IMG/VR virus record: IMGVR_UViG_2619619134_000012
Direction: 5' to 3' (one strand)
DNA length: 35,126 bases
Origin: a virus
Taxonomy: Duplodnaviria; Heunggongvirae; Uroviricota; Caudoviricetes
Shown here: in pieces, positions 698 through 35,126 of the stretch
Layout of the letters: every line of letters begins with the position of its first letter
Numbering within the stretch: the first letter of the stretch is position 1
Position numbers and translations under genes: made by a program
The notes under the pieces: model-generated
Databases searched by the model: none
Told to the model about the DNA's origin: nothing
What the model saw: only the letters and a program-made list of their open reading frames with translations

Positions 698-1060
698 GGG
701 GCTGATTCTGGATTCGACGGGATTTGCGAAACCCAAGGTGCATGCCGAGGGGCGGTTGGCCTCGTAAAAAGCCGCAAAAAATAGTCGCAAACGACGAAAA
801 CTACGCTTTAGCAGCTTAATAACCTGCTTAGAGCCCTCTCTCCCTAGCCTCCGCTCTTAGGACGGGGATCAAGAGAGGTCAAACCCAAAAGAGATCGCGT
901 GGAAGCCCTGCCTGGGGTTGAAGCGTTAAAACTTAATCAGGCTAGTTTGTTAGTGGCGTGTCCGTCCGCAGCTGGCAAGCGAATGTAAAGACTGACTAAG
1001 CATGTAGTACCGAGGATGTAGGAATTTCGGACGCGGGTTCAACTCCCGCCAGCTCCACCA
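698..1060 (+). ncRNA. ssrA: tmRNA (transfer-messenger RNA, 10Sa RNA)
   Basis: 363 nt starting GGGGCTGATTCTGGATTCGACGGG and ending in the tRNA-like ...GGTTCAACTCCCGCCAGCTCCACCA; internal tag reading frame 787-819 GCAAACGACGAAAACTACGCTTTAGCAGCTTAA encodes ANDENYALAA-stop. Confidence 0.95.
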
Positions 1061-8742: not shown

Positions 8743-9930
8743 ATGAATACATATACACTAACAAGCTACAGCATAATTTACTCTATTTTGATTCCTTTTA
8801 TTATATACTTTGCACTATCTATTCTCCCTGTTTTTCGCAGACCAATAATAGAAGATGGTCCAGGGAAATATATTTATCTTGACCCATTAAGAGGCCTTGC
8901 TGCAGTTTTTGTATTTATACACCACTCAATAATGATCTACAATTTACATACGATAGGTACTTTTGCACCAGACGGGGCATTTTCTTACGCATCACAAGCA
9001 GTAACTGTCACATATTACCACTTCGGTCAATCATCTGTGATGATTTTCTTCATGATTACTGGTTTCTTATTTTTTGGGAAAATATTAAATTTCGAAAAAA
9101 AATTTATAAGTGACGACTTCTTTTTATCCAGAATAAAAAGATTATTCCCCGCAATGTGTTCTTGCTTTATCCTTTATATTATCGCATGTTTTCTTTTATC
9201 TGACACCACAGCTAATAACAATTATTTAGAACATGTGTTATCTTGGTTTTCATTTGGTTTTATAAATCTACCAAAAGTTTCAAGCAACATAGATGGTTGG
9301 ATGTTAGTTGCGGGAGTTTTTTGGACGTTAGTTATTGAATGGAAATTTTATCTCATCACCCCTTTATTGAGTTCATTAATTAACACCAAAATTAAATCAA
9401 TTTGTTTTATTCTAATTGCATCTTGCATAACAATACAGTTATTTATAAATAATCAATTAACTGAGAAAGAGGCATCCATATATCTCTGTTTTATTAGCGG
9501 ATTTGTTGCAGCCATAGCCAACAAGTATTATAGAGAGAAATTATCAATGTTATTTACAGGATTTATATCAGCATCATTAATTACTTCCATATACGTATAT
9601 TGTTTTTATAATACCATTGGCTCTTATAACTTCCAAGTTACTGGTGCATTATTTTTGCTGTTTATATCAATAGTATCAGGGAATTCTTTTTTTGGAATCC
9701 TAAAAATTAAAGCTCTGCACTGCGCAGGAAAATGTAGTTATAGTGTATATATAATGCATGCTTTAATATTGAATATTATTTTCTTTGTTATGGCAAAACA
9801 ATATGATTATTACGTTTGTTTTTTAGTGGCTTCTGTAACTCTAGGAGTGCTAACCATTCTTAACTACGTGTTTGTAGAAAGAAAATTCATATCAGGAAAG
9901 CAAGAGAAATTAAAGCAAGCAACTATATAA
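8743..9930 (+). CDS. Acyltransferase family 3 integral membrane protein (OafA/Oac-like O-acetyltransferase)
   Basis: 395-aa polytopic membrane protein with acyltransferase-3 signatures (YLDPLRGLAAVFVFIHH; FFMITGFLFFGK; WTLVIEWKFY); strongly AT-rich; opposite strand to the flanking tail genes; occupies the P2 Z/fun position between G and FI. Confidence 0.8.
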   Translation: MNTYTLTSYSIIYSILIPFIIYFALSILPVFRRPIIEDGPGKYIYLDPLRGLAAVFVFIHHSIMIYNLHTIGTFAPDGAFSYASQAVTVTYYHFGQSSVMIFFMITGFLFFGKILNFEKKFISDDFFLSRIKRLFPAMCSCFILYIIACFLLSDTTANNNYLEHVLSWFSFGFINLPKVSSNIDGWMLVAGVFWTLVIEWKFYLITPLLSSLINTKIKSICFILIASCITIQLFINNQLTEKEASIYLCFISGFVAAIANKYYREKLSMLFTGFISASLITSIYVYCFYNTIGSYNFQVTGALFLLFISIVSGNSFFGILKIKALHCAGKCSYSVYIMHALILNIIFFVMAKQYDYYVCFLVASVTLGVLTILNYVFVERKFISGKQEKLKQATI

Positions 9931-20582: not shown

Positions 20583-22349
20583 ATGAACACGACACTGATC
20601 CCCGCAGACCTCGATCCCCGTCGGCAGGCCATGCTGCTGTACTTTCAGGGATACCGCGTAGCCCGCATTGCTGAAATGCTGGGCGAGAAAGTTGCAACCG
20701 TTCACAGCTGGAAGAAGCGCGACAAGTGGGGCGACTATGGGCCGCTGGATCAGATGCAGCTCACCACCGCCGCACGTTACTGCCAGCTCATTATGAAGGA
20801 GCAGAAAGAAGGGAAAGACTTCAAGGAAATTGACCTGCTGGCGCGCCAGTCAGAGCGCCACGCCCGGATCGGTAAATTTAACGATGGCGGGAACGAAGCA
20901 GACTTAAACCCGAACGTTGCCAACCGTAACAAAGGGCCGCGCCGCCAGCCCGAAAAGAATGTTTTCACCGATGAACAGACCGAAAAGCTGGAAGAAATCT
21001 TCCGCAACGGCATGTTTGAATATCAGCGCCACTGGTGGCAGGCAGGCGTAAAACACCGCATTCGCAACCTGCTTAAATCACGTCAGATTGGGGCAACATA
21101 CTTTTTTGCCCGCGAAGCGCTGATTGATGCCATCACCACCGGGCGCAACCAGATCTTCCTCTCAGCCAGTAAGGCGCAGGCGCACGTCTTTAAGCAGTAC
21201 ATCATCGACTTTGCAAAAGAGGTGGATGTTGAGCTGAAAGGCGACCCGATGACGCTCAGCAACGGCGCGTGCCTGTACTTCCTCGGCACCAACGCCCGCA
21301 CGGCGCAGAGCTACCACGGCAATCTGTACCTTGATGAATATTTCTGGATACCGAAATTCCAGGAGCTGCGCAAGGTTGCCTCCGGTATGGCCATTCACAA
21401 GAAATGGCGACAAACCTACTTCTCCACGCCGTCCAGCCTGACCCACAGCGCCTATCCGTTCTGGTCCGGCGCGCTGTTTAACCGGGGCCGTGCCAAAGCG
21501 GACAAGGTGGATATTGACCTGACCCACAGCAACCTTGCGCGCGGCCTGCTCTGCCCTGACGGACAGTACCGCCAGATCGTCACCGTGGAGGATGCGGTGC
21601 GCGGCGGCTGTAACTTGTTCGACCTCGACCAGCTGCGCATGGAGTACAGCCCGGACGAATACCAGAACCTGCTGATGTGCGAATTTATTGACGATCTGGC
21701 GTCAGTATTCCCGCTCAGCGAACTGCAGGCGTGCATGGTGGACAGCTGGGAAGTCTGGACCGATTTTCATGCTCTGGCGCTGCGCCCGTTTGGCTGGCGC
21801 GAAGTCTGGATCGGATACGACCCGGCGAAAGGCACGCAGAACGGTGACAGCGCCGGGTGCGTGGTGGTGGCACCGCCAACCGTGCCAGGCGGCAAGTTCC
21901 GCATTCTGGAGCGACACCAGTGGCGCGGGATGGACTTCCGCGCCCAGGCTGACGCCATTAAAAAACTGACACAGCAGTACAACGTGACCTATATCGGCAT
22001 CGACTCGACCGGCGTCGGTCACGGTGTCTACGAGAACGTGAAAGCGTTCTTTCCTGCCGTGCGGGAGTTTGTCTACAACCCCAACGTCAAAAACGCCCTG
22101 GTGCTCAAGGCCTACGACATCATCAGCCACCGCCGTCTGGAGTTTGACGCCGGGCATACCGACATTGCGCAGTCCTTTATGGCTATCCGCCGGGCCACCA
22201 CCGCCAGCGGCAACCGCCCAACCTATGAAGCCAGCCGCAGCGAAGAAGCCAGCCACGCAGATTTGGCCTGGGCAACGATGCACGCACTGTTTAACGAACC
22301 GCTGCAGGGCGAGGCCGCCAATACCAGCAACATTGTGGAGATTTTCTGA
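20583..22349 (+). CDS. P: Terminase large subunit (ATPase plus nuclease)
   Basis: 588-aa ORF with a lambda-gpA-type deviant Walker A candidate KSRQIGAT, Walker B LYLDE and a C-terminal nuclease region (VWIGYDPAKG...IGIDSTGVGHG). Confidence 0.9.
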   Translation: MNTTLIPADLDPRRQAMLLYFQGYRVARIAEMLGEKVATVHSWKKRDKWGDYGPLDQMQLTTAARYCQLIMKEQKEGKDFKEIDLLARQSERHARIGKFNDGGNEADLNPNVANRNKGPRRQPEKNVFTDEQTEKLEEIFRNGMFEYQRHWWQAGVKHRIRNLLKSRQIGATYFFAREALIDAITTGRNQIFLSASKAQAHVFKQYIIDFAKEVDVELKGDPMTLSNGACLYFLGTNARTAQSYHGNLYLDEYFWIPKFQELRKVASGMAIHKKWRQTYFSTPSSLTHSAYPFWSGALFNRGRAKADKVDIDLTHSNLARGLLCPDGQYRQIVTVEDAVRGGCNLFDLDQLRMEYSPDEYQNLLMCEFIDDLASVFPLSELQACMVDSWEVWTDFHALALRPFGWREVWIGYDPAKGTQNGDSAGCVVVAPPTVPGGKFRILERHQWRGMDFRAQADAIKKLTQQYNVTYIGIDSTGVGHGVYENVKAFFPAVREFVYNPNVKNALVLKAYDIISHRRLEFDAGHTDIAQSFMAIRRATTASGNRPTYEASRSEEASHADLAWATMHALFNEPLQGEAANTSNIVEIF

Positions 22350-23074
22350 TGCACTCAACCCCAACTAACCTCATGACCACCGCCAGCCTGCCTGTAGATC
22401 GCCCTTTCTTTGCTTACCAGCATGAATGGAACAGCGGCGCACGCAGCAGAAACCGTGTGCTTACAAAAATGCGTCAGGCTGGCGCAGATTTCTTTTTCGC
22501 CTACGAAGCCCTGAACGATGCACTGCATACCGGACGCAACCAGATTTTTCTGGGCTGCACCCCGGCATCCGCCCTGACAGTCAAAACCTATATGTCAGCC
22601 TTTATAGATCAGGCTGCAGCCTGGACACACCTTGGAAAAATAAAATCAGGCAAAGCGCATCTGGAACTACCAAACGGTGCAGTCATTTATTTTATCGGGC
22701 CGGAAAGCCTCGCCGCCGCGCTCCATGGAAACGTCTACGTGTCAGAGTATGCCTGGGCGGACTCCCCGAAAAATATGATTGCGCTCGCCAAAAGCCTGTC
22801 CATGCACGCGCGCTATCACGCTACCTACTACACCACCCCAAGCCCCAGCCCGGAAGCATGGCGGGAATACAAGAAGCTGATTGCCCGCAACAGCACAACC
22901 AGCATGACCTTTACCGCTGATGACGCTGCAGCATCCGGGGCAACGCTCGCAACCGGAGCCGCGCTCTTTGATGATGAATGGCTGAATGACATGAAAAAAG
23001 AATTATCAGCAGCGGACTGGAGAATGTTGTTTATGTGCGAATGGCCCCAGTTTGACAAGGAGCAGATGGCATGA
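22349..23074 (+). CDS. Terminase-ATPase-domain-only paralogue (truncated, motif-degenerate terminase large-subunit-like protein)
   Basis: 241-aa ORF overlapping the P stop (TGATG) and the Q start (ATGA); aligns by eye with the ATPase core of the adjacent P protein (KMRQAGADFFFAYEALNDALHTGRNQIFL vs KSRQIGATYFFAREALIDAITTGRNQIFL; LFMCEW vs LLMCEF) but lacks the N-terminal and nuclease regions. Confidence 0.7.
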   Translation: MHSTPTNLMTTASLPVDRPFFAYQHEWNSGARSRNRVLTKMRQAGADFFFAYEALNDALHTGRNQIFLGCTPASALTVKTYMSAFIDQAAAWTHLGKIKSGKAHLELPNGAVIYFIGPESLAAALHGNVYVSEYAWADSPKNMIALAKSLSMHARYHATYYTTPSPSPEAWREYKKLIARNSTTSMTFTADDAAASGATLATGAALFDDEWLNDMKKELSAADWRMLFMCEWPQFDKEQMA

Positions 23075-27816: not shown

Positions 27817-28761
27817 TTAAGGCGTTTCCGTAGGTTCGAATTCGTCCCACTCTGGAGGCAGCCCCATTAACCAAAGGCTCAAGGCCGGATTTAACTGGCC
27901 TCCATTTTCCATCTGTGCATTTGAGCCAGTCAGCATCTTTCCAGAAGCCGTTAACCGGACCGGGCCTGCAATCTGTGCCACCACATCCAGACGATCTGTC
28001 GATATTTTCCCTTTGCGAATCCTCCCCCCAGGATCCCCCCCCCCTTGTGGTCGCTGGCTGTTGGCGTGGGCCAGCCAGCCATTTTTACCTGTTGCGCAAG
28101 GCTGCTGCCGGACATGCCCTCGGTAATCCCTCGCCCTCCCCGCCTGCTGTCGCTGGCACTCGGAGTTGTCCAGCCCGAAAGCTGCGCAGCTGTCTGCAAG
28201 TTCAATCCTCCCTGACGGCCCGCGTTGCTGGGATGCTTCCAGGCATTCGCTGTTGGTGTGGACCACCCAATAAGTTCTGTCCCGGATGTTCGGGGCACCG
28301 ACGCTCGCAGCCGGAAACGCACTCGCCCCGAAGGCATAACCCAAGGCTTCCACGTCAGTCTGTACAAGGTCGATCCAGTCATTTGCGTCAGCACTTGCAG
28401 ATTGCTCGCCAAAGACAACGACAGGGCGACGCTGCCCGACCAACCAATGCATGGCGGGCCATAAGTGCCGCTCGTCAGCAAACCCTTTTCCTTTGCCTGC
28501 CGCGCTGAAAGGCTGGCATGGGCAGGAACCTGTCCAGACTTCTCTGCTGTCTTCCCAGCCCACACGGCGCAGGGCATATGACCAAATGCCAACCCCTGCA
28601 AAGAAATGGACCTGAGCAAATCCTCGTAAATCATCGGGTCTGACATCTTCAATACTCCTTTCATCTACAACACCCGGCATAATGCGACCGGCAGCCATGT
28701 GTACGCGCAGCCGCGCAGCTGCAAACGGGTCTATCTCGTTGTAATAAGCCCACGCACTCAC
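27817..28761 (-). CDS. DNA (cytosine-5) methyltransferase-like protein; coding frame ambiguous (possible frameshift or phase-variable gene)
   Basis: Frame starting at GTG 28761 carries C5-methyltransferase motifs I ([12 protein letters not shown]), IV ([15 protein letters not shown]), VIII ([13 protein letters not shown]) and a motif IX-like C-terminus ([19 protein letters not shown]); an overlapping second frame and a G10 tract complicate the call. Confidence 0.45.
27951..28664 (-). other. Alternative-frame ORF (237 aa) fully overlapping the methyltransferase-like gene, with three tandem GW[STP]TP[TS]A repeats
   Basis: Open across about 700 nt in a second frame; tandem repeat units start near 28279, 28175 and 28077 (period about 100 nt); passes through the G10 tract. 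Confidence 0.3.
28035..28044. repeat. Homopolymer tract C10 (G10 on the coding strand) inside the methyltransferase-like gene
   Basis: Plus strand ...GGATCCCCCCCCCCTTGTGG...; a second C6 run lies at 28024-28029. Confidence 0.9.
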
Positions 28762-29615
28762 GCCTGCACCTCATACTTAACGCAGCAATCAGGACCGCCA
28801 GCAGGATCAAAACCAATCCAGTGATGAGGTTTAGAAGTAGCGATGATTTCCACGGCGGACTTACCATCACCGGCAGCCACACCCATGCTGCGCTTTGCCG
28901 TCAGCCGATAGCGGGAGAAATTGCGATAAAGAGAACGGGTCAAAGATGTATCACTGTTGGACACAATGACCGGATGACCTTCTGATGAACGACGCTCAAG
29001 AATAGACGCCAGATGATACTGATCATCCTCAGTAAATCCGGCGGTGTGATAACCGGTAAACGTTCCGTCATATGGCGGATCGCAATAAACCACATCACCA
29101 GTCTTCAGCAGTGCCAGTGTTTCCTCATAGCTGGCACAGATAAACGTTGCACGTTGTGCCTTTTCTGCAAAAGCGCGTATTTCGTTTTCGGGGAAGTACG
29201 GATTTTTATAATTACCGTAAGGAACATTAAAGTGACCACTCAAGTTATAGCGGCACAGTCCGCGATAACAATGGCGATTAAGATAAATAAACATGGCTGC
29301 GCGGCAATCCACAGGCCAATCACGTCCATGGTTAAATTCTTTTCGAATATCGTAGTAATCCTCTGCCGATTTATTTTTAGCAAATAAATCCTTGCCAATT
29401 GAGATTAATAATTCAGGTCCGCTTTTAATGGCATTGTAAAGACTTATCAGATCTGGATTAATATCCGCGACAAGATAATGAGGATAGTCTGTCTCCATCA
29501 TCACAGCGCACGAACCCGCGAAAGGCTCAACCAGTCGCGGGCCTGCTGGAAGGTGTTTTTTCAGTTCTGGCATTATGGCGGTTTTATTACCCGCCCATTT
29601 CAGGATGGTGCTCAT
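28758..29615 (-). CDS. DNA adenine (N6) methyltransferase, Dam/D12 class
   Basis: Start at ATG 29615 ([18 protein letters not shown]...); motifs KWAGNK, FAGSCAV and DPPY; stop overlaps the start of the cytosine methyltransferase-like gene. Confidence 0.85.
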
Positions 29616-29839
29616 ACAGCCCCCCCTACGTAATGTTTGCCTTTCAGCTCTGCGATTTCCTGACAGGTGACGCAACACTGCACGCCCGGAATAGCGCGGC
29701 GGCGAGCTGGCGGGATCGGTGCATCGCAATCAATGCAGAGCACACGGGAAACGCCCGGTGTTCTGTTGCGGGCGGTGTGGATGTGGCGCTGACGTTCTTC
29801 TTCAACGCGCTGCTGTACAAGGTCCATTGAATCAGCCAT
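29612..29839 (-). CDS. TraR/DksA-family C4 zinc-finger protein
   Basis: 75 aa with CIDCDAPIP...CCVTCQ, a Cys4 arrangement typical of phage TraR-like proteins. Confidence 0.7.
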   Translation of the reverse strand: MADSMDLVQQRVEEERQRHIHTARNRTPGVSRVLCIDCDAPIPPARRRAIPGVQCCVTCQEIAELKGKHYVGGAV

Positions 29840-31194: not shown

Positions 31195-31437
31195 TTACAG
31201 ACCAACAATGACGCGAAAGTTGGAATGACCGAGGGATTCACGAACCTGATCCGTTTTGTACATCAGGTAACGCAGGCTTACGCGCCCCTTGTTTTTATCC
31301 TTTTTAACCATGTATTTAGCCAGCTTACCATGGTGGATTTTTTGATAAACAGAACCGCGTGAAATGCCTTCCCATTCGGCGAATTCTGCAGGCGTAGCCA
31401 TCTCTTTTGGTACACGAATTGAAATATCAGTGCTCAT
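31195..31437 (-). CDS. apl: Apl/Cox-like excisionase and switch regulator (helix-turn-helix)
   Basis: 80-aa helix-turn-helix protein (ATPAEFAEWEGISRGSVYQKIHHGKL), first gene of the rightward early operon, divergent from cI. Confidence 0.6.
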   Translation of the reverse strand: MSTDISIRVPKEMATPAEFAEWEGISRGSVYQKIHHGKLAKYMVKKDKNKGRVSLRYLMYKTDQVRESLGHSNFRVIVGL

Positions 31438-31556
31438 AGTGCAGTATCTCTCAGTTAAGGTTTGGTTTATGTCGTTTTATCTTGTTTTATACGATTCAAT
31501 ACTTGAACAATCGAGATACTACGATCCAATATTTGATACGTCAATAGGATTAAAAA
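31438..31556. promoter_or_regulatory. Lysis-lysogeny switch region (face-to-face promoters and candidate operators between apl and cI)
   Basis: AT-rich 119-bp intergenic region between divergent apl and cI, with short direct repeats (GTTTTAT x2) and inverted repeats (TTCAA-TACT-TGAA; ATCG-N8-CGAT). Confidence 0.4.
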
Positions 31557-32189
31557 ATGATACAGGTGAAAGCTGGCGAGAATACAGGGGGTAGAGAGGC
31601 TATCCATAGGTTGATGGCGGCCTATGATTTCAAGTCCAGACAGCAGCTATGCGATCACCTAGGCGCATCTAAAAGCACCATGGCAAACAGATACTTAAGG
31701 GACAGCTTTCCTGCAGAATGGGTGATCCAATGCGCTCTTGAAACAGGCGTTTCGTTACTCTGGCTAACCACAGGGCAAGGCGAACCAGGAGCAAAAATTG
31801 ATGATAAAAAAAGTATCAATATCGTGAACTCCAGCAAGGTTAAACCTCTTTCTGAACTTATATCGCCAGAGATCGACAAGGCTACCCTTATGGGAGGTTC
31901 GTTGGTTGAAGCCGGGAAGGCCATCATTGATAGCAGCCTGCTTCCCCCTGACTCAAACGAGCTGCTTCTCGTAAATACCACTGGCGATTCATATTTAGTT
32001 GACCGTAACCAGACACCACCAGTGAATGGGATGTGGTTGGTCGATATCGACGGGATAAAAAGCATTGTTAAGCTAACTCGCCTTCCGGGAAACAGATTAG
32101 TTGTGCATCAAGATGACTCTTCGTTTGAGTGCAGCCTGGATGATATCGAGGTTGTTGGCCGCGCATTGAAAATTATTAAGAGCCTTTGA
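31557..32189 (+). CDS. cI: CI-like immunity repressor (phage 186 CI family)
   Basis: 210-aa ORF with helix-turn-helix region AAYDFKSRQQLCDHLGASKSTMANRYLRD and CALETGVSLLWLTTGQGE; immediately upstream of int as in the 186 cI-int operon. Confidence 0.75.
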   Translation: MIQVKAGENTGGREAIHRLMAAYDFKSRQQLCDHLGASKSTMANRYLRDSFPAEWVIQCALETGVSLLWLTTGQGEPGAKIDDKKSINIVNSSKVKPLSELISPEIDKATLMGGSLVEAGKAIIDSSLLPPDSNELLLVNTTGDSYLVDRNQTPPVNGMWLVDIDGIKSIVKLTRLPGNRLVVHQDDSSFECSLDDIEVVGRALKIIKSL

Positions 32190-32190
32190 T

Positions 32191-33216
32191 ATGACCATCA
32201 GAAAACAGCCGAACGGAAAATGGTTGTGCGAGTGTTACCCGAACGGGCGTGACGGTAAGCGCGTGCGCAAGCAATTTGCGACAAAGGGCGAGGCTGTAGC
32301 ATTCGAAAACTTCACCATGGATGAAGTGAACAAAAAGCCGTGGCTGGGTGAAAAGGAAGATCGGCGGCGTTTGTCAGAATTGATTGAGCAGTGGCATTCA
32401 CTTTATGGGCAGACGCTGGCTGACCCCAAACGCCTTATGGCAAAACTCAGCATTATTTGTAATGGCCTTGGTGATCCCATCGCCTCAGAGTTAACCGCAG
32501 GCGATTTTACGAAATACCGGGAAGCACGTCTAAAAGGTGAAGTAAAAAATGAAGATGGCGTGCTTATGTCGCCAGTTAAACCCCGCACGGTAAACCTTGA
32601 GCAACGCAACCTATCCTCTGTTTTTGGCACGCTGAAAAAGCTGGGCCATTGGTCAGCCCCAAACCCGCTAGCCGGTCTGCCAACATTCAAAATTGCCGAA
32701 GGTGAATTGGCGTTCCTAGCCCCGGAAGAAATTAAACGCCTGCTGGATTCCTGTGCTGAATCTCAAAGCCCCAGCTTACTGATGATTGCAAAAGTATGCC
32801 TAGCCACTGGTGCACGATGGAGTGAAGCAGAAAACCTACAAGGACACCAGCTGTCGAAATATCGCATCACCTACACCAAGACCAAAGGCAAGAAAAACAG
32901 AACCGTGCCAATATCACAAGATCTGTATGACGAACTACCCAAGAACAGAGGGAAGTTATTCACGCCATGTAGAAAAGCCTTTGAGCGCGCAGTGAAGCGG
33001 GCCGGAATCGATCTGCCAGAGGGTCAATGTACTCATGTGCTGCGCCATACATTCGCCAGCCATTTTATGATGAACGGCGGAAACATACTGGTGCTGCGCG
33101 ATATTCTAGGCCATGCCGATATAAAAATGACAATGGTATATGCTCACTTTGCACCCGATCACCTCGAAGATGCAGTGACAAAAAACCCGCTTCACAATCT
33201 CAACTGGAAGCGCTAA
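32191..33216 (+). CDS. int: Tyrosine integrase of the prophage
   Basis: 341 aa with the C-terminal catalytic region HVLRHTFASHFMMNGGNILVLRDILGHADIKMTMVYAH; adjacent to the right att repeat. Confidence 0.9.
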   Translation: MTIRKQPNGKWLCECYPNGRDGKRVRKQFATKGEAVAFENFTMDEVNKKPWLGEKEDRRRLSELIEQWHSLYGQTLADPKRLMAKLSIICNGLGDPIASELTAGDFTKYREARLKGEVKNEDGVLMSPVKPRTVNLEQRNLSSVFGTLKKLGHWSAPNPLAGLPTFKIAEGELAFLAPEEIKRLLDSCAESQSPSLLMIAKVCLATGARWSEAENLQGHQLSKYRITYTKTKGKKNRTVPISQDLYDELPKNRGKLFTPCRKAFERAVKRAGIDLPEGQCTHVLRHTFASHFMMNGGNILVLRDILGHADIKMTMVYAHFAPDHLEDAVTKNPLHNLNWKR

Positions 33217-33333
33217 TTTATGGCGGCATTTTGGCGGCAGAGCATTAAAAACGCATAAAACGGACAAACACCAAATAACACTAACCCACTGTTTCTAAAG
33301 GTAACTCACTGTTTTTATTATACTAAAAATGGT

Positions 33334-33379
33334 ATGTAGGAATTTCGGACGCGGGTTCAACTCCCGCCAGCTCCACCAA
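33334..33379. repeat. attR: displaced 3' end of ssrA (46-bp core repeat)
   Basis: Identical to 1016-1061; followed by a terminator hairpin and a second integrase. Confidence 0.8.
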
Positions 33380-33412
33380 TTTTTGATATATTGAAGTTCA
33401 GTGAAGTCTATC

Positions 33413-33447
33413 AAGCCCGCATGGAACCAGCCTTGCGGGCTTTTTTA
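33413..33447 (+). terminator. Rho-independent terminator after the displaced ssrA 3' fragment (probably the ancestral ssrA terminator)
   Basis: GCCCGCA ... TGCGGGC stem followed by TTTTTT. Confidence 0.55.
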
Positions 33448-33544
33448 CGTCTATAGTAGTCTACCGAGAATTGCTAGAATCTACTCGTTATGGCACCCTT
33501 TTTGGGACCCAACACAAAGGGTCCAAAACATGAGGGTCCCAAAC

Positions 33545-34774
33545 ATGGCAAAAATCGCTAAGAAGCTCACTGACACTGAAATCAAAAGCACCAAACCTGC
33601 CGAGAAAGAGGTTAACCTTTTTGACGGCGATGGTTTGCTCCTGCGAATCGCCCCCTTAGCGAAGGGAGGAAAGAAAAATTGGTATTTCAGATATGCAGTG
33701 CCTGTGACCAAAAAGCGAACTAAGGTGAGCTTAGGAACCTATCCTCACCTTACACTTGCGAAGGCACGAGCTTTACGTGATGAGTACTTGTCGTTGCTTG
33801 CAAATGGTATAGACCCACAAGTTCATAACACCCACAAAGCCAATGCCCTTAAGGATGCAACGGAACATACATTTCAAGCAGTAGCCAAGAAGTGGCTTGA
33901 TGAGAAAGTCAAAACGTCAGGCATCTCCCAGGATCATGCTAACGACATCTGGCGAAGCCTAGAGAGAAATATCTTTCCAACGTTGGGTGATACCCCCATT
34001 AAGGAGATTCGCCCTAAAATGCTTAAACAGCATTTAGACCCCATAGAAAAACGAGGTGTCCTTGAAACACTTCGCCGCGTCATATCCCGCCTGAATGAAA
34101 TTTTCCGCTATGCAGCAACAGAAGAACTCATAGAATTCAATCCGGCTGACAACCTGGGGCAACGGTTCAGCAAGCCAAAAAAACAGAATATGCCAGCATT
34201 ACCCCCTTCCGAACTCCCCCGCTTCCTGGTTGCTCTAAACAATGCTTCTATCCGTTTAGAAACAAGGCTACTGATTGAGTGGCAACTTCTCACATGGGTT
34301 CGCCCTGGTGAAGCTGTTCGCACAAGATGGTCAGATATTGATATAGAAACCAGCATGTGGAACATCCCGGCGGAGTTTATGAAAATGAAGAAGCCTCACA
34401 AAGTTCCACTGAGCAAAGAATCTTTGCGAGTCTTGGATTCAATGAAAGCCATCAGCGGGCATAGAGAGTGGGTTTTTCCCAGTATCAAAGCTCCACTCAA
34501 TCACATGCATGAACAAACAGCTAATGCGGCTATAATCCGTATGGGCTTCGGAGGTGAGCTTGTAGCTCATGGTATGCGATCAATCGCTAGAACGGCGGCT
34601 GAGGAGTGTGGCAAGTTTAGAACTGATGTCTTAGAAGCCGCCCTTGCCCACTCGAAAAAAGATGAAATAATTGCAGCCTACAATCGTGCAGAGTATCTCA
34701 CAGAACGTGTGGTTCTCATGCAATGGTGGAGTGACTATGTTTCGTCTCAAAAATACAAAGTTATTGCCGCATAA
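33545..34774 (+). CDS. P4/CP4-57-family tyrosine integrase of a second, tandem integrative element
   Basis: Start at MAKIAKKLTDTEIKSTKPAEKEVNLFDGDGLLLRIAPL..., clearly related to E. coli CP4-57 IntA (LTDTEIK, DGDGL, DIWRSLER, HGMRSIA, LAH); sits directly 3' of the ssrA-derived repeat. Confidence 0.85.
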   Translation: MAKIAKKLTDTEIKSTKPAEKEVNLFDGDGLLLRIAPLAKGGKKNWYFRYAVPVTKKRTKVSLGTYPHLTLAKARALRDEYLSLLANGIDPQVHNTHKANALKDATEHTFQAVAKKWLDEKVKTSGISQDHANDIWRSLERNIFPTLGDTPIKEIRPKMLKQHLDPIEKRGVLETLRRVISRLNEIFRYAATEELIEFNPADNLGQRFSKPKKQNMPALPPSELPRFLVALNNASIRLETRLLIEWQLLTWVRPGEAVRTRWSDIDIETSMWNIPAEFMKMKKPHKVPLSKESLRVLDSMKAISGHREWVFPSIKAPLNHMHEQTANAAIIRMGFGGELVAHGMRSIARTAAEECGKFRTDVLEAALAHSKKDEIIAAYNRAEYLTERVVLMQWWSDYVSSQKYKVIAA

Positions 34775-34795
34775 CTCTTCCATGATGGGTTAACT

Positions 34796-35126
34796 GGTAA
34801 TGGTGCCAACTTACTGATTTAGTGTATGATGGTGTTTTTGAGGTGCTCCAGTGGCTTCTGTTTCTATCAGCTGTCCCTCCTGTTCAGCTACTGAAGGCGT
34901 GGTGCGTAACGGTAAAAGTACTGCCGGACATCAGCGCTATCTCTGCTCTCACTGCCGTAAAACATGGCAGCTACAGTTCACTTACACCGCTTCTCAACCC
35001 GGTACGCATCAGAAAATCATTGATATGGCCATGAATGGCGTTGGATGCCGGGCAACCGCCCGCATTATGGGCGTTGGCCTCAACACGATTTTACGTCACT
35101 TAAAAAACTCAGGCCGCAGTCGGTAA
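34796..35126 (+). mobile_element. IS1 insertion sequence, partial (truncated by the window end)
   Basis: IS1 terminal inverted repeat GGTAATGGTGCCAACTTACTGAT at 34796 followed by insA; begins 21 bp after the integrase stop. Confidence 0.9.
34851..35126 (+). CDS. insA: IS1 transposase component InsA
   Basis: 91 aa [91 protein letters not shown], essentially identical to IS1 InsA as I remember it. Confidence 0.9.

Follow-up and report, generated by a model that had tools for sequence, protein, structure and literature searches.

Does the integrase gene directly beyond the right end of a prophage at ssrA head a complete second element, integrated in tandem, or is it what remains of an older one? 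The stretch of DNA analyzed here (the window; 35,126 nt) runs from the start codon of smpB (1-483) to the stop codon of insA, and an earlier sequence-only reading of it proposed that a P2-like phage integrated into an ssrA gene already occupied by a P4-like or CP4-57-like element, placing a potential helper and satellite side by side, with IS1 possibly truncating or rearranging the second island. We consider it very likely that the locus preserves the int-proximal stump of an E. coli ssrA island that is old and widespread, and that this stump, beside a younger 186-like prophage, was cut off by an IS1-mediated rearrangement. What survives of the island would then be an att half-site, arm-type repeats and an intact integrase of the IntA/CP4-57 family.

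To define the layout of the locus, we located the tmRNA gene and its partial copies. ARAGORN identifies a single intact ssrA gene in the window (698-1060, + strand, tag ANDENYALAA), and its 3' end (72 nt) is that of K-12. The last 45 nt of the gene and one following base constitute the attL copy (1016-1061) of a repeat that recurs in direct orientation, with 46 of 46 positions matching, at 33334-33379 (+ strand); the chance expectation for such a match is effectively zero. This second copy, the only displaced tDNA fragment in the window, serves as attR of the prophage and was originally the end of ssrA that adjoined the older island; prophage-free strains have these bases within an intact ssrA. 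Displaced ssrA fragments vary in length with the element to which they belong (window 33341-33379 compared with L004, L006, L007 and L010; L numbers designate related loci), although all end in CCACCAA. They measure 46 nt for the 186-like prophage and, as judged from BLAST match starts, ~33-39 nt for lambdoid prophages and ~24 nt for P4-like satellites, which suggests that different crossover sub-sites may be used among ssrA elements.

The interval between the two repeat copies (1062-33333) is occupied by a 186/P2-like prophage, recognized by its Pfam matches (Phage_GPD, Phage_portal, Phage_GPA, Phage_CI_repr and Int_N + Phage_integrase) and by the gene tables of near-identical loci. Its genes cover tail (including the baseplate hub), capsid, terminase, portal, replication gene A, Dam and C5 methylases, cII/Fil and a 186-type CI repressor; the repressor gene (31557-32189, Phage_CI_repr) is followed by the prophage integrase gene (32191-33216, Int_N + Phage_integrase). 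Several further features of the prophage were observed. A gene for a 395-aa acyltransferase of the Acyl_transf_3 family (8743-9930, + strand) sits among the tail genes, on the strand opposite to theirs; probably a moron, it may encode an LPS/O-antigen acetyltransferase. An extra 241-aa ORF with a Terminase_6N domain (22349-23074, + strand), unusual among P2/186-like phages and present also in L013, L016 and L020-L022, separates the gene for the 588-aa terminase ATPase from the portal gene. Beside replication gene A, neighboring genes for a C-5 cytosine methylase and a Dam-type N6-adenine methylase (27817-29729, - strand) take a position that holds other genes in related prophages, for example PAPS_reduct in L014 and L019. 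Just inside attL, a 125-aa ORF (1156-1533, + strand) has a signal-peptide-like N-terminus (MNKPLIALLLITSFSASA) and no match in Pfam. At the other prophage end, the integrase-attR interval is a cargo hot spot: in a related ssrA prophage of strain 300709 it holds an annotated anti-phage dCTP deaminase gene (L027, 487-2244).

Beyond attR, the window contains the series that the sequence-only reading described, namely a displaced ssrA fragment (33334-33379), a P4/CP4-57-type integrase gene (33545-34774, + strand) and, 21 bp past its stop codon, IS1 (from 34796). The order in which these parts came together can be read from other strains. In six prophage-free loci (L001, L003, L005, L008, L009 and L012), an intact ssrA runs with 100% identity into the sequence corresponding to 33334-34795 of the window. 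Since prophage-free strains thus carry ssrA with the identical spacer and integrase, the 186-like prophage entered an ssrA that was already occupied, which upholds the earlier proposal on this point. The same island integrase also stands behind other insertions at ssrA, including lambdoid prophages (L004, L007), P4-like satellites (L006, L010) and 186-like prophages (L002, L011), and, conversely, ssrA can hold this 186-like prophage (Int protein identical) without the island (L013) or with other neighbors (L014, L018-L020). The island was therefore resident first, and the attP of the 186-like phage later recombined with the ssrA 3' end; through this integration ssrA was rebuilt with downstream sequence from the phage, and its original 46-nt end was moved, together with the island, 32 kb downstream.

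The proximity of the two integrase genes, at most 330 bp apart and on the same strand, might suggest that the second is simply another recombinase of the 186-like prophage. We regard the likelihood of this as negligible: the gene lies beyond the 46-bp att repeat, it is present at ssrA in prophage-free strains, and it is missing from loci that carry the same prophage (L013, L014 and L018). Position outside the repeat and occurrence in prophage-free strains led us to reject 33545-34774 as a prophage recombinase gene.

To characterize this integrase, we compared it with domain and family models and with integrases of known elements. The ORF begins 165 bp past the 46-bp repeat and ends in a stop codon at 34772-34774; it is intact and encodes 409 aa. 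Pfam resolves three domains, Arm-DNA-bind_3 (PF13356; 2.6e-23, residues 8-95), Phage_int_M (PF22022; 2.2e-25) and Phage_integrase (PF00589; 1.4e-18), an architecture shared with P4 integrase. The arm-DNA-binding domain (DUF4102/Arm-DNA-bind_3) has PDB relatives 3ju0 and 3jtz ("CP4-like integrase"), and the NCBIfam model NF007246 is matched over its full length (residues 1-401) at 445.1 bits, above its cut-off of 434. In an alignment with IntA and two satellite integrases, R253, K280, H342, R345, H369 and Y379 are invariant. Domains, catalytic residues and family model together place the protein among the P4/CP4-57 (IntA)-type tyrosine integrases. Its identity is 49% over 401 aa to IntA of K-12 CP4-57, 35% to P4 Int and 50% to the integrases of two P4-like satellites resident at ssrA. 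The exact protein occurs in 10,467 indexed collection blocks; at the DNA level, 94 of 5,426 complete E. coli genomes carry an allele at least 99% identical, and a further 530 genomes of that set carry one that is 90-95% identical. Every match in these complete genomes lies on the chromosome, and the median number of places per genome is one.

The 165 bp between repeat and ORF, and the first bases of the gene, resemble the corresponding region of CP4-57. A terminator-like hairpin (AAGCCCGC...GCGGGCTTTTTT, 33413-33447, + strand; inverted repeat I3 and terminator scan) lies where K-12 CP4-57 has one 3' of ssrA, and in strains without the prophage it would be the ssrA terminator, supplied by the island. 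It is followed by copies of the motif AGGGTCC(A/C)AAACATG (33496-33547, + strand; repeat search D1, I1), of which two are in tandem over the int start codon (AGGGTCCAAAACATG and AGGGTCCCAAACATG) and one is inverted, 23 bp upstream (CCCTTTTTGGGACCC). We propose that these repeats are putative arm sites of the island integrase because the same layout is seen in the annotated arm repeats of P4 attP, which also comprise two tandem copies and one inverted copy at the int start, and in the CP4-57 repeats at the int start (motif TAGGCCCA).

We then asked what kind of island this integrase belongs to. In the complete genome of strain 300709, whose integrase region is 100% identical, ssrA and ypjA are separated by an island of ~21 kb. 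Besides a MobA/VirD2 relaxase (PF03432, 1.6e-22) and an AlpA-family regulator (1.4e-19), its products are a large serine recombinase, a RelA/SpoT-like protein and two ParB-like proteins, a NACHT/NA-iREase2 protein, an ankyrin-repeat protein, a DUF6387 protein and a fragment of a type II REase. Across relatives, the domains found after the integrase are Resolvase/Recombinase, ParB_N/RepB, RelA_SpoT, NA-iREase2, Relaxase and AlpA; PADLOC assigned no defense system to the intact island cargo beyond the type II REase fragment. The intact island looks like a mobilizable integrative element of ~21 kb, as far as can be judged from its gene content, and searches of intact relatives for an oriT, a distal att site or evidence of excision found none. 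A further att copy downstream, which the sequence-only reading had suggested seeking, was likewise absent from L017 (described below) and from the other relatives scanned: exact k-mers of at least 11 nt gave no distal ssrA 3' repeat downstream of int in L001, L002, L005 or L012, nor did mismatch scans and blastn-short in L027, and the only match in these scans was the unrelated ileY tRNA 3' end, on the other strand.

These contents bear directly on the suggestion that a helper and its satellite lie side by side, in which the integrase would head a P4-type satellite mobilizable by the adjacent P2/186-like prophage. The P4-type architecture of the integrase would fit such an arrangement, as would L015 and L016, where true P4-like satellites adjoin this same prophage at ssrA. 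However, the genes psu, delta, sid, epsilon and alpha are found neither in the window nor in the intact island relatives, and every relative with the exact integrase has non-P4 cargo, as do L002 and L027, whose integrase is annotated WP_001384082.1 (gene 99-100% identical). Moreover, the integrases of the satellites are no closer than the 50% identity given above, and in the window the integrase is all that is left before IS1. We find a mobilizable satellite scarcely credible here, and P4-like identity of the second element was rejected on the non-P4 cargo of its relatives. The earlier alternative of a P4-like or CP4-57-like element is thereby narrowed, in that the CP4-57-like half is retained, and the island is CP4-57-like in its integrase and AlpA module rather than a P4 satellite. 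Since the island is not of the P4 type, no helper-satellite relationship with the prophage is expected.

Genuine helper-satellite tandems of the kind imagined in the sequence-only reading do occur at ssrA. In L015 (11373-20658) and L016 (11384-16811), the same 186-like prophage, with identical Int, is followed directly at ssrA by P4-like satellites carrying Psu and Delta, and that of L015 carries AlpA, Ash, epsilon and the alpha primase as well. Psu, Ogr_Delta, Derepression and primase domains are found in L006, L010, L015 and L016, together with other integrases. The locus in the window is a useful negative control for the prediction of helper-satellite pairs by integrase adjacency, integrase type alone being non-diagnostic.

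The window departs from the intact islands shortly after the integrase gene. The 21 bp past its stop codon (34775-34795, + strand) equal the int-downstream sequence of intact islands up to 34795. After the last 9 bp of this remnant (GGGTTAACT, 34787-34795), intact islands go on with ATCTTGATTT..., whereas the window switches to IS1. The left 331 bp of this IS1 (34796-35126, + strand) begin with the IRL GGTAATGGTGCC... (GGTAATG...) and contain insA (34851-35126, + strand), which is matched by Zn_ribbon_InsA (1.5e-21) and HTH_Tnp_IS1 (4.7e-31); the window ends at the insA stop codon, with 331 of the 768 bp of IS1 present. This part is 100% identical to IS1 in L021 and to both IS1 copies of L017, which are full length (768 bp, with IRL and IRR), and 93.75% identical to the IS1 of strain YPE10. 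The junction of int, 21 bp and IS1 is itself 100% identical in at least two independent assemblies, the draft contig L021, which ends inside IS1 and has further similar places on record, and the complete chromosome L017 (CM127658.1, GCA_052766285.1), and therefore the join is not an assembly artefact. No complete RefSeq E. coli genome holds the exact junction, which had no single-piece match in the 5,426 complete E. coli genomes and none in GTDB representative genomes, IMG/VR or JGI metagenomes. The 3' end of int is a recurrent IS target: several complete E. coli genomes have IS1 near it at positions other than that in the window, and in L022 (12572-12968) an IS3-family element (end TGAACCGCCCCGGG...) lies 13 bp before the stop codon of the same island integrase.

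To follow the sequence beyond the window, we used L017 as its proxy, the two being 100% identical over 3.9 kb and 99.9% identical over 7.7 kb. In this chromosome, two identical 768-bp IS1 copies of opposite orientation bracket the segment corresponding to 31239-34795 of the window, which is inverted (L017 8281-13373), and each of the new junctions carries the 9-bp target CACGAACCT (window 31239-31247), the duplication being an inverted one. The second IS1 and the inverted duplication of CACGAACCT are the signature of IS1 intramolecular replicative transposition, with which L017 shares the inverted IS1 pair around an inverted segment. As a side effect, the inversion breaks the 186-like prophage of L017 apart between cII and the apl-like gene, so that the lysis-lysogeny switch of this prophage should be inactive.

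When this event is worked backwards, the IS1 beside int proves to have had an original right junction of IRR-TGTGCACAG, next to which lies the 3' flank of proX. This flank is 100% identical to K-12 but inverted relative to ssrA, and beyond it come proW, proV, nrdE, nrdI, nrdH, ygaM and ygaC. In this closest complete genome, then, IS1 is followed by ordinary chromosomal genes, with no further island content or att repeat, and a continuation of the second island past IS1, as the sequence-only reading envisaged, is not found there. The target-site duplication that might have been expected is lacking too: the left flank of the int-adjacent IS1 in L017 is GGGTTAACT, the right flank is TGTGCACAG, and a 9-bp direct repeat is absent, as is also the case in intramolecular IS1 transposition. 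Because the flanks are unlike and no target was duplicated, this IS1 marks a rearrangement. The part of the earlier proposal in which IS1 truncated or rearranged the second island accords well with the missing duplication and with a right flank of inverted proX DNA.

The int-IS1-proX arrangement of L017 would be explained most simply by an inversion of roughly 50 kb, which would bring the proX 3' flank next to IS1. The IS1 joined 21 bp past the integrase stop codon would accordingly represent the boundary at which an IS1-mediated rearrangement, and not a simple insertion, separated the integrase from the remaining island. The IS1 of the window presumably has the same right flank, which is known only from L017, a relative in which IS1 has caused at least one more rearrangement. 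A search of the genome contig collection for the partner junction that the inversion predicts (IS1 end-GGGTTAACT-ATCTTGATTT) gave no matches, and complete E. coli genomes showed no IS1 beside the 3' flank of proX; the remainder of the island may have been inverted elsewhere or lost. If the inversion took place and the island was retained, a further IS1, AGTTAACCC and the inverted serine recombinase gene should lie ~50 kb away, beyond proX.

A simple insertion of IS1 would have left a different arrangement, in which the island continues for ~20 kb after IS1 with a 9-bp duplication of GGGTTAACT, the right end of IS1 joins GGGTTAACTATCTTGATTT instead of the proX flank, and a complete second element stands in tandem with the prophage. 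Several observations are compatible with it: the left junction falls exactly where intact islands continue, IS insertions near the 3' end of int are common and often leave the island in place, as in YPE10, and the DNA of the window itself ends inside IS1. We nevertheless consider it improbable, since in L017, where alone among complete genomes the identical junction is seen, the IS1 lacks a direct duplication and originally had proX DNA on its right. In addition, even the intact relatives are without a distal ssrA repeat, and no complete excisable element is evident anywhere. Severance of the island by an IS1-mediated rearrangement remains the reading that we prefer.

The stump can be compared with several known systems. 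With CP4-57 of K-12 (intA-alpA) it shares the target, the ssrA 3' end, and the position and orientation of the integrase, and the intact relatives of the island share the AlpA-family regulator as well. The cargo is unlike, consisting in K-12 of yfj genes, rnlAB and abpAB and in the relatives of the serine recombinase, ParB-like, RelA/SpoT-like and NACHT-type proteins and the MobA/VirD2 relaxase; the window, for its part, keeps the integrase alone. P4 integrates at a leucine tRNA gene. Its target differs from that of the island, another attP core being annotated in its record (X51522), and its genes sid, delta, psu, epsilon and alpha have no counterparts in the window or the intact relatives.

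Closer precedents are found beside other prophages. In the record of the Stx1 prophage CP-1639 (AJ304858), a "remnant integrative element" whose intA is 78% identical is annotated beside phage genes, and papers discussing CP-1639 mention ssrA; phi467 (LN997803) has the same arrangement, with an intA 86% identical to the integrase of the window. All three have a prophage, then the IntA-like integrase of an older element, with an IS at the boundary. In CP-1639 and phi467, however, the small-island cargo includes a histidine-kinase-like ATPase, the IS is IS629 instead of IS1, and the prophage is lambdoid instead of 186-like. More generally, tandem arrays of islands at tDNAs have been catalogued, the tmRNA gene showing the strongest enrichment as a target of integration (PMC4383910). 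As in these arrays (Islander/TIGER), successive integrations at a regenerated tDNA push older islands downstream. Of the two features by which Islander recognizes array members, each member here has its own integrase (prophage, 32191-33216; island, 33545-34774), whereas no displaced tDNA fragment of its own was found for the older island in the window or in the relatives scanned. Given the CP-1639 and phi467 records and the catalogued tDNA arrays, the locus, a prophage with a remnant integrative element at ssrA, is of an ordinary and already known type.

It is conceivable, if decidedly doubtful, that the orphan integrase is still active in trans on the ssrA-derived att copies of its neighbors, or that it has been kept through domestication for such a role. 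If so, the 186-like prophage, or P4-like satellites arriving at ssrA, may be excised, lost or captured with its help, and this would explain why the same int gene is found beside ssrA in many assemblies despite differing cargo and frequent downstream truncation by IS elements. For annotation, the limits of the 186-like prophage should be set at 1061 and 33334, and the integrase at 33545-34774 should not be counted as a prophage or satellite gene. The significance of the locus beyond such correct annotation is small; it is one more case of ssrA acting as a stacking hot spot and of IS1 reshaping the borders of an island.
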